Source: a virus. Taken from it: a stretch of DNA of 64,000 bases. The notes beneath the pieces were generated by a model, which did not search any database, had not been told where the DNA came from, and saw nothing but the letters and a program-made list of their open reading frames with translations. Where the stretch lies: the IMG/VR virus record IMGVR_UViG_3300012954_000007. One strand, given 5' to 3'. The stretch's first letter is position 1. Each line of letters begins with the position of its first letter. Positions 3,463-62,410 of the stretch are shown piece by piece. The translations under genes and the position numbers were made by a program.

Positions 3463-3474
3463 TATTTATAAATA
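3463..3474 (+). promoter_or_regulatory. Putative late promoter TATTTATA (palindromic TATTTATAAATA) upstream of the baseplate operon
   Basis: The motif ends 10 nt before the ATG at 3481, and the same 8-mer precedes many other genes in the window. Confidence 0.55.
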
Positions 3475-45625: not shown

Positions 45626-45982
45626 TTAGAAGTCCATATTATCGAATGGTTCCATAAGATTACCACGATTCTTAAATCCTACACCACCCACATAAGTTTC
45701 CATGTTGTTCATTTTTCTTCTTTCGTAGTCTAGAACTGCTAAAGCTAACTTCCTATCATATTCCTTATCATCTGTTTCAGGGACTACACCATCATAATAG
45801 ATGGAACCTCTAAAACTTCTTCCAGGACCACGAAAATCCATTACCTCATCATAATCAGAATCAGACAATTCAAATTCAACATCATCTACAGGAAGTCTGT
45901 TATCCATTTCTTCCTCTTGTTCGTTAATTACTTTGTTTAACGCTTTCTTAATATCTCTTTCTGTAATTCTAATTTTACTCAT
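45626..45982 (-). CDS. Hypothetical acidic protein, possible internal head protein
   Basis: Start reassigned to ATG 45982 (MSKIRITERDIKKALNKVINE) with TATTTATA just upstream. The TTG start at 46039 lies inside a terminator. Confidence 0.7.
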   Translation of the reverse strand: MSKIRITERDIKKALNKVINEQEEEMDNRLPVDDVEFELSDSDYDEVMDFRGPGRSFRGSIYYDGVVPETDDKEYDRKLALAVLDYERRKMNNMETYVGGVGFKNRGNLMEPFDNMDF

Positions 45983-46016
45983 GGTATTCTTTTTAATATA
46001 AATATAAACAAGGTTA

Positions 46017-46048
46017 AATAAAAAAAGGGAATCTTTCAATCCCCTTTT
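46017..46048 (-). terminator. Rho-independent terminator
   Basis: Minus strand reads AAAAGGGGAT-TGAAAG-ATTCCCTTTT-TT-TATTT, just after the Cys-rich mini-ORF. Confidence 0.75.
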
Positions 46049-46065
46049 AATTAATTATTTAGTTT

Positions 46066-46128
46066 TTAACAATTGCAACAAGTACATTCACATTTGGTAG
46101 TACAGTTACATTTTTCACAATCACACAT
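46066..46128 (-). CDS. Metallothionein-like 20-aa peptide MCDCEKCNCTTKCECTCCNC (not in ORF track)
   Basis: Translated by hand: 9 of 20 residues are Cys in CxC/CC clusters. The ATG is 15 nt after the stop of the upstream gene, behind an A-rich leader, and a terminator follows. Confidence 0.75.
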   Translation of the reverse strand: MCDCEKCNCTTKCECTCCNC

Positions 46129-56150: not shown

Positions 56151-56779
56151 TAGGTGTAATGTTTATATAATAGTTTTCTACAAAATCCCTTACTCTCTAG
56201 TAAATTATAAAGTTCTTTTCTTTGGACGGTAGATAAATCTCGACTTATTAAAAAATTAAATTTACCGTTATCGGTAAAATATTTTTTTATACAAGATAAA
56301 AATCTTGAAGCCTCACTTACATTTTTTAAACTAAATAAATTAAACAAATCGTTATTTTGTACTACTACTTTATTATTTAGTGAATATATTTGTATAATGT
56401 TTTTAGTATTTAAATATCTATCGTATAATTCTTTAAAATCTATCCTCCTACCTAACTGATGGTCGTAAACTTTTTCCTCTATAAGAAAAGGTTTAATTTT
56501 AATAATTTGATATTTTTTATTTTTCATAGTAACCTCAGTTAATCTTCCTAGTTCATCCCTACGATGTATAGGGGTCTTCCTACATTTACCAATACAAACT
56601 AAAGCCAACTCAAATTCACATTCTATTTTTTTATTGTACTTTACAGGGAATATAACATTTGATTTTTTATGTATTTCTTTGTATTTTTTATTAATGTTAG
56701 TAAAAATACGAGAACTAGCAACAATTCTTTTTTTAGATTTGTTGTTAAATAAAACAATTTGATAACTAGTGATATCCAT
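56147..56779 (-). CDS. Hypothetical basic protein, antisense to its neighbours
   Basis: 210-aa ORF filling the gap exactly, with no competing plus-strand ORF. Confidence 0.75.
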
Positions 56780-57733
56780 ATGAAAAATTATTATGAAATT
56801 TTAGGTGTAAGTAAAGAGGCAACTGCGGAAGAAATAAAAAAAAGTTATCGTAAACTTTCTTTAAAATATCATCCAGATAAAAATCCTGATGGTGAAGATA
56901 AATTTAAAGAAATATCTGAAGCTTATAGTATTTTAAGTGATAATGAAAAAAGAAATAAATATGATAATGGTGGGATGAACTTTGAGGACCTTTTTAGTGG
57001 TAATGCGGGTAACCCATTTGATATGTTTAATGACTTATTTGGTAACCAAGGTTTTAATCAACAACCTAGAACTAGAAGAGGTAGAGATTTAAATGTGAAT
57101 TTAAATATATCACTAGAAGATTCATATTTCGGTAAAGAAAAGACTTTAAATTTTAATAGAGTGACTACTAATAACAAAATGTGTGGGACATGTAAGGGAC
57201 AAGGAATAGTCCATCAAACAGTTCAACAAGGACCCTTTAGGCAAGTACTCCGCACCACGTGCCCAAGTTGTAATGGTAATGGTTTTGAAGGGGGAGGATT
57301 CTACAAAAAAGAAGAAGTTAAATTTAATATTCCTAAAGGTATTGATGATGGTTTACTGATGAAGTTAAGAGGTAAAGGTAATGCTGTTTGGGGTGGAATT
57401 GATGGAGACTTATTAATAAAAATTCGTATACTACCACACACTACTTTTAAAAGAGCTGCTGAACAATTACATTATAATGAGGATATTAATTTTGTTGATA
57501 TTTGTTTAGGTAAAGAAATATTAATAAAACATTTTGATGGTGAAATTAAAGTAGTAGTACCACCTAATTCAGACTTTAAAAAACCTCTTCGTGTAAAAGA
57601 AAAAGGATTTTATGACCCATCTGGTTTTAAAGGAGATTTATATGTATTTTTAAATCCAGTAAACCCTATTAGTATCACAGAAAATGAAAAAAAATTACTA
57701 GAAAAATTAAAAGAAGAAGAAAACTTTAAATAA
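56780..57733 (+). CDS. dnaJ: DnaJ/Hsp40 co-chaperone
   Basis: [10 protein letters not shown]...YHPDKN J domain, G/F region, two CxxCxGxG motifs and C-terminal domain; ATG at 56780. Confidence 0.93.
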
Positions 57734-57921
57734 TGGAAAAAGAAAAAAAATGTAAGGGTTGTAAAAAGAAACCTTTAACCGATTTAAATGAACAAAAAAT
57801 TAAAGACGAACAGTTTTCACCCCTTGTCAAAGTCTTAATTTCTTTGTATACTGTATTAGCAATATATGGTTCTATCCGTTTATTTATGGATTTAAATAAC
57901 CTATTTAAAAATATATTTTAA
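57733..57921 (+). CDS. Small protein with CxxC and a TM helix
   Basis: KCKGCKK followed by a hydrophobic helix; coupled by TAATG at both ends. Confidence 0.65.
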   Translation: MEKEKKCKGCKKKPLTDLNEQKIKDEQFSPLVKVLISLYTVLAIYGSIRLFMDLNNLFKNIF

Positions 57922-59090
57922 TGAAAGAACAACTAGATTTATTTCAAACTGAAGAAGAAACTTTTGATTTTGAGTCGATGAAACAAGACTTAATAGACAA
58001 TTTGGATATGTTAAAAGAAATGACAGTTCAAGAACAGACCTTATATAAAAAATGGCAAGAAATGAATAAGGGTGGTAAGATGTCTAAAATTAAAAAGAAA
58101 CTTTTAGGTTATAAAAACAATCTATGGACACCTACAGATATTACAAATGTTGATTTAACCATAAAAGAAATATTAGAAATTGAACCTTACGTTGTTATGG
58201 CAGAAAGTGGTAAAGGTGTCACAGAATGGGTTAACTATAGAAAACTTATTCACACTATGGAATGGGTAGCTAATCCAGGGAGAAATATGAAATTTTGGGT
58301 TAGAGATAGAAAAACAGATAAAGTGTTAGGTCAAATATGTTTAGGGTCAGATGTAACAAGTATTAAAGTTAGGGACGCTTATATTGGTTGGGACAAAACT
58401 AATAAATTTGAACAAGGTAAATTAAATTGTACCGCAATAGCCACCACCATATGTAGCACTCAACCTGGTGGATTTAATATGTTAATGGGTAAATTAGTAG
58501 CTTCATTAACTACATGTAAGACGATTAGAGACGCGTGGGAGAATAAATACGGTAATAAGTTAATTGCTGTAGGGACTACCTCTTTATATGGTATACACTC
58601 AATGTATAACGGTATACCACATTTTAAAACGATGGGAGAGACAACAGGACAAGTTAGACTTAAACCAGATGATAGTGTGTATTTACCCTGGAACAAATGG
58701 TTAAAAGATAACCACCCCGAAGAACATAAAAAAGCAATTAGTGCTACAGGACCCAAACAGAATATTATAAATAAAGTATTCAAACACTGTGGGATTAAAC
58801 CATCCACATATGACCATGGATTTAAAAGAGGTGTCTATTTAGCAATGATGTATGAAAATGGATGTGAGTTTCTACGTGGTGAAATAAATGAGGATAAACT
58901 TAAATTAAAAACAAAGTTTGAAGAAGACATTCCATATACAGATAAGTGGTGGAAGAAAAAAGCGGTTAAAAGGTACCAAACTTTACATAAAAATAATAAA
59001 GTAAAACCTGAAACATTATTCTATTGGGACGCGATAGATATATCTTGGGAAGAGATGAAAGAAAAATATTTAAAAGAAGTTGGACGTTAA
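57921..59090 (+). CDS. DUF4338 / Druantia DruA-like protein
   Basis: NPGRNMKFWVRD...LG.ICLGSD....VRDAYIGW, GKLVA and TTSLYG..S.YNG pattern. Confidence 0.7.
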   Translation: MKEQLDLFQTEEETFDFESMKQDLIDNLDMLKEMTVQEQTLYKKWQEMNKGGKMSKIKKKLLGYKNNLWTPTDITNVDLTIKEILEIEPYVVMAESGKGVTEWVNYRKLIHTMEWVANPGRNMKFWVRDRKTDKVLGQICLGSDVTSIKVRDAYIGWDKTNKFEQGKLNCTAIATTICSTQPGGFNMLMGKLVASLTTCKTIRDAWENKYGNKLIAVGTTSLYGIHSMYNGIPHFKTMGETTGQVRLKPDDSVYLPWNKWLKDNHPEEHKKAISATGPKQNIINKVFKHCGIKPSTYDHGFKRGVYLAMMYENGCEFLRGEINEDKLKLKTKFEEDIPYTDKWWKKKAVKRYQTLHKNNKVKPETLFYWDAIDISWEEMKEKYLKEVGR

Positions 59091-61136: not shown

Positions 61137-61535
61137 TTAAGAAAGTTTATCCCAACTACCGTTATTAAGTAATTTAAAAGTACCTATGTATTTTTTATCC
61201 CATTGATTTGGGTTAATTAAACTCAGAAATAAATTCTTATTATCTCTTTCATATAAAAAATATTCTTCCCCCAGTAAAGGTTGGAAGTTATATTCGGATT
61301 CGTAGACTAGTTTAGTCCAGTTATATTCCTCAACCAATTCTTGATATTCTTTTTTTAATTCTTTTAATCTAGAATCAAAATAATTGTCTGCTTTATAACT
61401 GTCACTTTTATCTACCTTAATTGGTTCGAATTTTTGTGAACCCACCGTGGTAGGATAAGATTTTATATTAGCGTCAAATTTTTCACTATCTTCATTATAT
61501 ACTATATTGTCTGGGTATTTCTTTTTCATAAACAA
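61137..61535 (-). CDS. DUF2452-like protein
   Basis: YNFQPLLGEEYFLY....LFLSLINPNQW pattern; the true start may be the second Met (61529). Confidence 0.7.
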   Translation of the reverse strand: MFMKKKYPDNIVYNEDSEKFDANIKSYPTTVGSQKFEPIKVDKSDSYKADNYFDSRLKELKKEYQELVEEYNWTKLVYESEYNFQPLLGEEYFLYERDNKNLFLSLINPNQWDKKYIGTFKLLNNGSWDKLS

Positions 61536-62410
61536 CTAAAATATCTTTCACCTCTATCACAGAGTATTGTTAAACCGTTATTACTATCGTTATCCCTCAA
61601 CCACTCAAAACACACTTTAACATTAGCTGCTGCACTAACACCTACAAATAAACCAAACTCAGAAGCTAATTTTTTAGCAAATAATTTAGCACATTCAGTT
61701 TTAATTGTTCTAACCTCATCTACTAACTCTAGGTCAACTAAAAATTTACTACCATCTCCTATTCCTTGTATACCGTGAAGTCCTGGTTCACCCCCTGACA
61801 TGACGGGACTTTCCGCTGGTTCCACAGCGACTACTTTTATATTGGGCCATTTTTCTTTTAGATATTTTGCAGTACCCATTAAACTCCCACCAGTACCTGT
61901 CCCCAAAACGATTACATCTGGTTTACTAGTATATAAAGGATATGTTGAGTAAAATTCAGGTCCCGTAGTTTCGTAATGAGCTTTTATATTTAAAGGGTTG
62001 TGGAATTGATTACAATTAAACCACCCTTCTTCTTTACACATTTTATCTCTTAATGCTATTGCCCCATCAAAATCACCTTCAGCTACTTCTATTAATTTTG
62101 CTCCATATATTTTGAACATATTTTTTCTTTCTTCGGACATATTAGAAGGCATAATAATAACCATTCTGTAACCTCTTTCCGCAGCTAACATAGCAAATGC
62201 AATTCCACTATTACCTGATGTGGCTTCACACAAAGTACTTCCCTTTTTTATTAAATTTCTTTTTTCTGCATCATTTAAAATGTAAGTAGCCATACGGTCC
62301 TTTACGGAACCAGATGGATTCATAAATTCCGCTTTTCCCCACACCGTAAATTCACCAATCTGTATTGGTATTAAGGGGGTTTGGCCTACGTAGTCTGATA
62401 ATTTTTTCAT
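61526..62410 (-). CDS. cysK: Cysteine synthase (O-acetylserine sulfhydrylase, CysK/CysM family)
   Basis: VGQTPL, KAEFMNPSGSVKDR (PLP Lys), EATSGNSGI, GTGTGGS, HGIQGIG and DRGERY. Confidence 0.93.
   Translation of the reverse strand: MKKLSDYVGQTPLIPIQIGEFTVWGKAEFMNPSGSVKDRMATYILNDAEKRNLIKKGSTLCEATSGNSGIAFAMLAAERGYRMVIIMPSNMSEERKNMFKIYGAKLIEVAEGDFDGAIALRDKMCKEEGWFNCNQFHNPLNIKAHYETTGPEFYSTYPLYTSKPDVIVLGTGTGGSLMGTAKYLKEKWPNIKVVAVEPAESPVMSGGEPGLHGIQGIGDGSKFLVDLELVDEVRTIKTECAKLFAKKLASEFGLFVGVSAAANVKVCFEWLRDNDSNNGLTILCDRGERYFSCL

Follow-up and report, generated by a model that had tools for sequence, protein, structure and literature searches.

A predicted nine-cysteine peptide of 20-23 residues, metallothionein-like in composition, in uncultured marine phages and a few marine Bacteroidota

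The beta-type domain of vertebrate and crustacean metallothioneins binds a M(II)3Cys9 or about a Cu(I)6Cys9 cluster, and the shortest classical metallothionein is the copper metallothionein of Neurospora crassa and Agaricus, which has about 25 amino acids and seven Cys and forms a Cu(I) cluster. The prokaryotic SmtA/BmtA (PF02069) and MymT proteins are cytosolic, Cys-rich metal buffers of 50-60 aa with a zinc-finger-like fold, His ligands and aromatic residues, and they are usually encoded beside a metal-sensing repressor. Metallothionein-like peptides as such are known; what appears to be new in the locus described here is a free-standing metallothionein-like peptide of only 20 residues in phages and Bacteroidota. 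When the literature was searched, no paper was found using the phrase phage, viral or virus-encoded metallothionein, and the words cysteine and metallothionein are absent from the global smORF catalogue paper.

The peptide is encoded in a 64,000-nt stretch of virus DNA (IMG/VR record IMGVR_UViG_3300012954_000007), the whole of which was analyzed and is called the window in this study.

The micro-gene and the phage that carries it

The original prediction described a minus-strand ORF of 20 aa with nine Cys, located 15 nt past a 622-aa gene behind an A-rich leader and followed by a terminator. All of these features were confirmed. The ORF (46066-46128, minus strand; 20 codons plus TAA), supported by the sequence, the ORF list, a shuffle control and family membership, runs from the ATG at 46128-46126 through 19 further codons to the TAA at 46068-46066. 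Its product is MCDCEKCNCTTKCECTCCNC, in which nine of the 20 residues are Cys (eight TGT codons and one TGC) arranged in the family pattern CxCxxCxCxxxCxCxCCxC-stop. Among the 39 long ORFs of the window, Cys accounts for 1.57 % of the codons, 97 % of them TGT. When 100 dinucleotide-preserving shuffles of the window were searched with two mismatches allowed, none contained the nine-Cys pattern, so its presence here is not a product of chance.

The 622-aa gene on the 5' side (48012 to 46144, minus strand) belongs to no Pfam, PHROG or NCBIfam family. The 15-nt leader between its stop codon and the ATG of the micro-gene (46143 to 46129, minus strand) is 73 % A over positions -15 to -1 and has no Shine-Dalgarno (SD) box. 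This represents the normal start context rather than a missing signal, because SD-less, A-rich leaders are found throughout the phage: none of the 39 long ORFs of the window has an SD-like box, and their leaders are 50-60 % A, A/T-rich and G-poor. Neither a terminator nor a promoter-like box was found between the 622-aa gene and the micro-gene, which suggests that the two are probably co-transcribed.

An intrinsic-terminator-like hairpin with a T run (46013-46048, minus strand; stem-loop 46048-46023 with 11 pairs and a GAAA loop) begins 17 nt 3' of the micro-gene stop. RNA folding recovered the same hairpin, which is identical in the relative L001 (see below), and no Rfam family was above threshold over either the micro-gene ORF or the terminator. 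In this phage, the micro-gene would probably be expressed as the last cistron of the 622-aa gene transcript, ending at this terminator. The next gene (118 aa; 45626-45982, minus strand) has no family match in Pfam, PHROG or NCBIfam. A TATTTATA box (45997-46004, minus strand) is located 15 nt 5' of its ATG, and further copies at 3463, 29622, 49500, 52571, 53629 and 59765 (+) stand 10-28 nt before ORF starts. The total number of such boxes in the window is only slightly higher than in shuffled sequence (25 vs. a shuffle mean of 17.5). Because of its repeated placement just 5' of several gene starts, TATTTATA is likely a phage promoter element that would open a new unit past the terminator.

The window has a G+C content of about 32 % and encodes a 2816-aa ORF, an SbcC-like protein, a sigma-70-type factor, DnaJ and a primase-like protein. 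The DnaJ-type co-chaperone (56759-57733, plus strand) is full, with a J domain, a CxxCxGxG element and a C-terminal domain, and a 389-aa protein (57921-59090, plus strand) matches the Druantia DruA family (Pfam PF14236, 4.1e-25). No DNA or protein relative of the window was found among cultured phages, and the phage groups carrying the micro-gene have no close cultured relative either. The sole close relative of the window is L001, a 194-kb IMG/VR contig with a CheckV completeness of 61 %. Judging from the length of this incomplete contig, the virus of the window is a jumbo-size phage. Matches to Bacteroidota genomes and the SD-less leaders, the sole grounds for a host assignment, point to Bacteroidota.

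When the window was compared with L001, which carries MCDCKECNCTTKCECTCCNC at the equivalent place, neighbouring blocks were 10-25 % divergent. The stretch from 46144 to 45545, comprising the stop codon of the 622-aa gene, the micro-gene, the terminator and the 118-aa gene, contains 1-5 mismatches per 100 nt, and beyond this block the mismatches amount to 5-28 per 100 nt. The 3' part of the 622-aa gene is unrelated to its counterpart in L001 and similarity restarts at the stop codon, which places the micro-gene at the margin of a block that was shared recently. The two micro-gene ORFs differ at two positions, both non-synonymous (EK to KE). Since the whole block is equally conserved, this pair alone holds no evidence of selection on the ORF. 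The upstream gene itself is a mosaic, with 622 aa in the window and 769 aa in L001 (4001-6310), where repeats rich in Gly and Glu have expanded and the C-terminus, which contains Cys, is unrelated. No family was found for either version.

Family members and evidence for a coding gene

IMG/VR was first scanned with a DNA pattern of nine TGY codons at the set spacing, with no stop codon required. Poly-Cys repeat noise aside, 16 small ORFs were obtained, and in all 16 the stop directly follows the ninth Cys and an ATG stands 0-2 codons before the first one. For the second scan, the stop was added to the pattern and Cys was barred at three spacer positions. At least 120 IMG/VR contigs match this pattern. 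It also occurs in 38 species genomes, which with few exceptions belong to marine Bacteroidota (marine Flavobacteriaceae, Cryomorphaceae (MED-G11), Cytophagales (Marinoscillum) or unclassified marine Bacteroidota). The host genomes that carry the micro-gene are 1.2-1.7 Mb in size and have a single copy each, and only one of 401 genomes sampled evenly from the same order had the gene.

At least 129 distinct family peptides of 20-23 aa were recovered, and their consensus is M-x-C-N-C-K-x-C-N-C-G-x-S-C-x-C-x-C-C-x-C. A typical phage form is MKCNCKVCNCGTSCDCTCCNC. Among the matches listed, phage versions mostly begin with MK-. Of 98 phage peptides, 78 have Gly at core position 9 and 82 have Ser at core position 11, with N/D fairly conserved at positions 2 and 18. 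Host versions mostly begin with MD- and never have Gly at core position 9. The window peptide has M alone before the first Cys, Thr at position 9 and Lys at position 11, and is thus an atypical phage form; by nucleotide identity, the nearest relatives of its gene among the matches listed are other phage copies. Taken together, these sequences describe a large family that is common to uncultured marine phages and a few small-genome marine Bacteroidota and has been unannotated so far.

A sister subfamily with a two-residue central spacer (19-20 aa, nine Cys; e.g. MCECKQCECESCNCSCCEC) was found in 19 contigs (loci L344-L363, e.g. L349 1895-1951 and L346 1590-1646). In 17 of the 19 contigs, GGAG is located 6-7 nt 5' of the ATG, as in a canonical ribosome-binding site, and this spacing suggests that the subfamily resides in phages of SD-using hosts. 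Its neighbours have no PHROG or cultured-phage match. No variant with a four-residue central spacer was found in IMG/VR. Longer variants were also observed, including one of 36 aa with 13 Cys and an extra N-terminal CxCxxCxCxxxCxC block (L125 798-905, minus strand), one of 30 aa with an 11-residue N-terminal extension (L206 1054-1143, minus strand), and one of 33 aa in an "archaeon" MAG with AGGAGG 5' of the ORF (L243 3133-3231, minus strand).

Pfam and NCBIfam contain no family for the peptide at E<=10, and PHROGs contain no match to the micro-gene family. A family profile gave 0 matches when compared with 1.84 billion representative proteins, and none of ten members (including the 30-36-aa variants) was present by exact look-up in a collection of 15 billion proteins. 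A family of well over a hundred members is therefore wholly missing from protein databases. It is because gene callers drop ORFs of less than about 30 codons. A tblastn search of the peptide against cultured phages also gave no match, for which the low-complexity filter is possibly responsible.

The variation among members has the form expected of coding sequence. In 141 distinct 60-nt cores (among the matches listed), the entropy of the non-Cys codons was 1.13, 0.98 and 1.40 bits at positions 1, 2 and 3, respectively, TGT and TGC alternate at every Cys codon (943:326), and the flanks of the cores are far more variable (1.58-1.74 bits). As the pattern scan itself forces the Cys, a neighbour-anchored test was also performed, in which 80 loci were picked solely by a 436-aa neighbour (71-100 % identical; see below) and searched with a nucleotide profile of the family. 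Twenty-three micro-gene copies were found, 21 as complete ORFs and two cut by the locus end. All 23 have each visible Cys conserved, a stop, no indels and the same strand as the neighbour. The 80 loci contained no decayed copy, and 57 of them had no trace of the micro-gene within the fetched stretch, some of these stretches being short of upstream sequence. Copies that are either intact or absent match the expectation for an accessory gene under selection. On this evidence, the micro-gene is a real gene under purifying selection as coding sequence, and it is presumably translated in the phage of the window.

Genomic neighbourhoods

The genes around the micro-gene vary from one phage group to another. 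In the largest phage group (37 loci), it lies about 185 nt 5' of the 436-aa FAD/NAD(P)-binding Pyr_redox_2 protein, which is followed by thymidylate kinase. About 20 other phage loci have it between family-less proteins, near a glycosyltransferase and a clamp loader, and further phage loci have it near a primase. The window and L001 share a context of their own that is distinct from those of the other phage groups. In some family members, the terminator is missing, or the start of the next gene lies 1 nt past the stop. The 436-aa Pyr_redox_2 protein was considered as a dedicated disulfide reductase partner of the peptide and rejected, as its Rossmann fold is of a generic FAD/NAD type and it bears no signature of a disulfide reductase; the idea is also undercut by the absence of a peptide copy from the fetched stretch of most loci that have this neighbour. 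In L267 and L268, a different ORF of 28 aa with six Cys and hydrophobic residues (MKEKICIAICKITFNKVCLGWCDTKCCK and a variant) is located about 115-125 nt 5' of the 436-aa gene, in the slot that the nine-Cys gene occupies in related phages.

On host chromosomes, 14-22 genomes have the micro-gene at one conserved place, in the order PurM, GlnA-like, Na/Ca-exchanger-family, tRNA-Arg(ACG), sometimes a 119-aa ORF, the micro-gene, an ORF-free unit and a Pirin gene. In other hosts, its neighbour is a glyoxalase-family gene, an FMN reductase or a PhoD-like phosphatase. The conserved ORF-free unit of these marine Flavobacteriales chromosomes (about 200 or 330 nt, directly 3' of the micro-gene; e.g. L241 4690-5075, and also L233, L238, L242, L259, L263, L231, L227, L235, L228, L239, L229, L260 and L252) contains an invariant box AAAGTTATTAACAATTT, a TAnnTTTG-like element and a conserved terminator hairpin (AAAGCCCGATTCATTCGTGAGTCGGGCTTTC). 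The unit had no Rfam match and is possibly an undescribed small RNA. Another RNA-like element was observed in L009, L068 and L097, 20-45 nt past the micro-gene stop, and also in L195. It is a hairpin with the conserved loop ATTCATAGC and compensatory changes in the stem (gtccg/cggac, gactg/cagtc and gctcg/cgagc), followed by a second hairpin and a T run, and it recurs 3' of genes in one phage group.

Inspection of 14 host contexts and of the main phage contexts revealed no gene for metal transport, no metal-sensing regulator and no metal-responsive operator next to the micro-gene, and no peptide maturase or peptide-modifying enzyme was found in the phage or host contexts examined. Neighbours that vary and include no modifying enzyme argue against enzyme-dependent roles.

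The window also encodes a 294-aa CysK/CysM-like PLP enzyme (61526-62410, minus strand; Pfam PALP 4.6e-67, NCBIfam cysKM TIGR01136 1e-85), whose TIGR01136 match of 288 bits is below the curated cut-off of 344 bits. The gene is also present in L001 and L143, two other contigs of about 200 kb with the micro-gene, and the L143 micro-gene copy is among the nearest to that of the window. Twenty other carrier records, three of them 96-97 % complete, have no such gene, and a general link with the cysteine synthase family was dropped, as it would be based on two of 22 records only. The occurrence of a 45 %-Cys peptide and a cysteine synthase in one phage is suggestive and is not a family-wide rule.

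These surveys change the picture given by the original prediction in part. A lone phage gene had been described, and it is instead an accessory gene family of many phages and a few host lineages. The gene is unannotated and its product metallothionein-like in composition, as proposed, and conservation of the Cys pattern in viral metagenomes, suggested as a check, was borne out by the nine-Cys pattern and stop in the IMG/VR contigs. Frameshifts or loss of Cys beside the same flanking gene would have spoken against the proposal, and none was seen in any of the 23 copies. Synteny did not hold across the family: the neighbours differ between phage groups. The last-gene position stands for the phage of the window, with its terminator, but not for the family as a whole, as the micro-gene is elsewhere found before or between other genes.

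A predicted metal-thiolate peptide and its alternatives

In composition, the predicted peptides show the traits by which metallothioneins are operationally recognized. They are of low molecular mass (20 aa in the window, 20-23 aa in at least 129 members) and rich in Cys (nine of 20 residues in the window peptide, 43 % in the family) in an invariant pattern that gives four CxC, one CxxC and one CC motif per peptide. Aromatic residues and His are scarce (each in one of 129 peptides among the matches listed, and in the window peptide neither). Apart from Cys, the family peptides are made up of N, K, D, S, T, G and E, with a median net charge of 0. With Cys at 45 % and nothing but small polar residues to separate them, the 20-mer would be unable to fold alone. 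When the 36-aa variant was modelled metal-free by AlphaFold2 with the family alignment, a pLDDT of 56 and a pTM of 0.23 were obtained, a low-confidence result that was to be anticipated and speaks neither for nor against a metal cluster. The cytoplasm is a reducing environment, and nine Cys, being odd in number, cannot all be paired in disulfides, which excludes a fully disulfide-bonded knot.

There was no significant match to any sequence-defined metallothionein family (Pfam Metallothio_* families, NCBIfam or PDB profiles). The best and only PDB profile match was wheat Ec-1 (2kak) with a non-significant E-value of 8.6, and look-alikes in the ESM Atlas were weak, with Metallothio_5 (score 0.81) as the sole named family among the four shown. 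Because significant metallothionein homology is lacking and the genomic context offers no metal link, metal binding, the choice of metal and a benefit to the phage are points that we infer. The fixed spacing, the CxC, CxxC and CC motifs, the few aromatic and His residues, the odd Cys count and the weak metallothionein look-alikes lead us to favour, with moderate confidence, a reading in which the peptide forms a metal-thiolate cluster and acts as a metallothionein-like metal buffer or donor encoded by an accessory phage gene.

Other explanations were weighed against this reading. The peptide might be a metal-stapled micro-protein that binds one particular protein of the host or the phage, for instance to inhibit it or to act as an adaptor, with the cluster as a scaffold rather than a buffer. 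Phage micro-proteins often act as inhibitors, and the frequent Gly9 and Ser11 of the listed phage peptides, the N/D at positions 2 and 18 and the consistent difference between phage and host forms (MK- with Gly9 vs. MD- without it) would suit such a binder; however, the gene occurs on unrelated phage backbones and on host chromosomes with no constant partner gene, and the small, polar and highly variable non-Cys residues offer little surface for an interface, so that we regard a specific binder as unlikely. A slightly lower probability is given to a thiol-redox or sulfur peptide for which metals would be inessential, i.e. a sacrificial reductant, a scavenger of oxidants or electrophiles, or a peptide that carries or stores cysteine or persulfide sulfur. 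The 45 % Cys content, the CysK/M-like cysteine synthase in the same phage lineage and the position 5' of the Pyr_redox_2 protein in the largest phage group all fit this explanation, but a mere thiol pool has no need for strictly fixed spacing of nine Cys. The 436-aa neighbour has the generic fold mentioned above, 57 of the 80 loci anchored on it were without the peptide in the fetched stretch (some short upstream), and the CysK/M-like gene is confined to two of 22 peptide-carrying viral records.

The remaining three alternatives conflict with the observations. A short peptide rich in Cys, Ser and Thr could be a RiPP precursor with Cys turned into thioethers or heterocycles, and phage-borne RiPP genes have reportedly been described in one study. 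Neither the leader or follower nor the neighbouring maturase of such a precursor was found here: the Cys begin at residue 2-4, the genes beside it in the phage and host contexts examined include no maturase of the radical-SAM, YcaO, LanM or any other type, and the neighbours change from group to group, which makes this explanation very improbable. Still less credit can be given to a cis-acting leader peptide that senses the supply of cysteine or Cys-tRNA and controls terminator read-through. The layout in the window resembles an attenuator, with nine Cys codons among 20, a terminator 17 nt on and then a gene, but folding gave only the terminator and a weak internal hairpin, with no competing hairpin and no complement in the ORF to the GGGGAUU arm. 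The next gene has its own promoter-like box, other members have no terminator or have the next gene 1 nt past the stop, and the downstream genes differ between members and are unrelated to cysteine metabolism; conserved non-Cys residues and a stop exactly after the ninth Cys would also be unexpected. Finally, the ORF is very short and absent from protein databases, as might be the case for an ORF that arose by chance or for a DNA or RNA element rich in TGT. We find this the least credible explanation of all, in view of the coding signature: the shuffles gave no match, the TGY triplets are all in one frame, the ATG and stop are conserved, third positions vary more than first and second ones, copies are intact or absent, the sister subfamily has GGAG, and no Rfam family reached threshold.

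Under the favoured metal-buffer reading, a jumbo-size phage that infects marine Bacteroidota would carry the ORF as an accessory gene and have it translated. The product, without a hydrophobic core, would most likely become structured only by wrapping its nine invariant Cys thiolates round a small metal cluster, for example one of three Zn/Cd or about six Cu(I) ions for the nine Cys. This stoichiometry is a guess, because nine Cys within 19 residues on one cluster would be denser than any solved metallothionein domain known to us. In the infected cell, the peptide would buffer or donate soft metal ions with high capacity. Its gene may be gained and lost among close phages like a moron or auxiliary gene, within a family that is common to many uncultured marine phages and to a few streamlined marine Flavobacteriales and Cytophagales. 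The rarity in hosts (one of 401 genomes) would be odd for a general metal-homeostasis function.

A broader proposal is put forward tentatively, as one that we think somewhat more apt to fail than to hold. The peptide could be the first virus-encoded and the smallest gene-encoded metallothionein (19-23 residues with nine thiolates), traded between phages and a few streamlined Flavobacteriales, by which phages would take over the Zn, Cu or Cd economy of the infected cell in trace-metal-limited seawater, backed in the jumbo-phage lineage of the window by a phage cysteine synthase as the source of cysteine. If true, the marine phages concerned would include those of both Bacteroidota and SD-using hosts. 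Bacteroidota are major degraders of algal bloom material, and if the peptide does bind metal, trace-metal handling would join the host processes reprogrammed by ocean phages, and the metal quotas of infected Bacteroidota would be partly a viral trait. Metal binding would further bring down the known size limit of gene-encoded metal-thiolate clusters, and provide a minimal model for metallothionein folding and a small metal-binding tag.

Among known systems, SmtA/BmtA and MymT would share with the peptide the trait of a prokaryotic, cytosolic, Cys-rich metal buffer. They differ from it in size and ligands: the peptide has 20 aa, no His, no PF02069 match and no adjoining regulator gene. Wheat Ec-1 has stretches of the form CxCGxxCxCxxCxC that can be aligned to the peptide over its C-terminal two-thirds (the match with an E-value of 8.6 given above), but Ec-1 is an 81-residue multi-domain plant protein that also has His ligands, unlike the phage peptide. 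The Neurospora and Agaricus copper metallothionein is likewise a gene-encoded, single-domain peptide of similar size with CxC motifs and Gly, Ser and Asn in between, whereas it is eukaryotic, has seven Cys without a CC pair, and does not align significantly with the phage peptide. The closest resemblance in Cys count is to the beta domain, which also has nine Cys mainly in CxC and CxxC motifs, lacks aromatic residues and His, is otherwise built of Lys, Asn, Asp, Ser, Thr and Gly, and is too small to fold metal-free. The animal domain spreads its nine Cys over about 30 residues and forms half of a two-domain protein, whereas those of the present predicted peptide, with no detectable sequence relation to the animal domain, fall within 19 residues of a free-standing 20-mer from phages and Bacteroidota.
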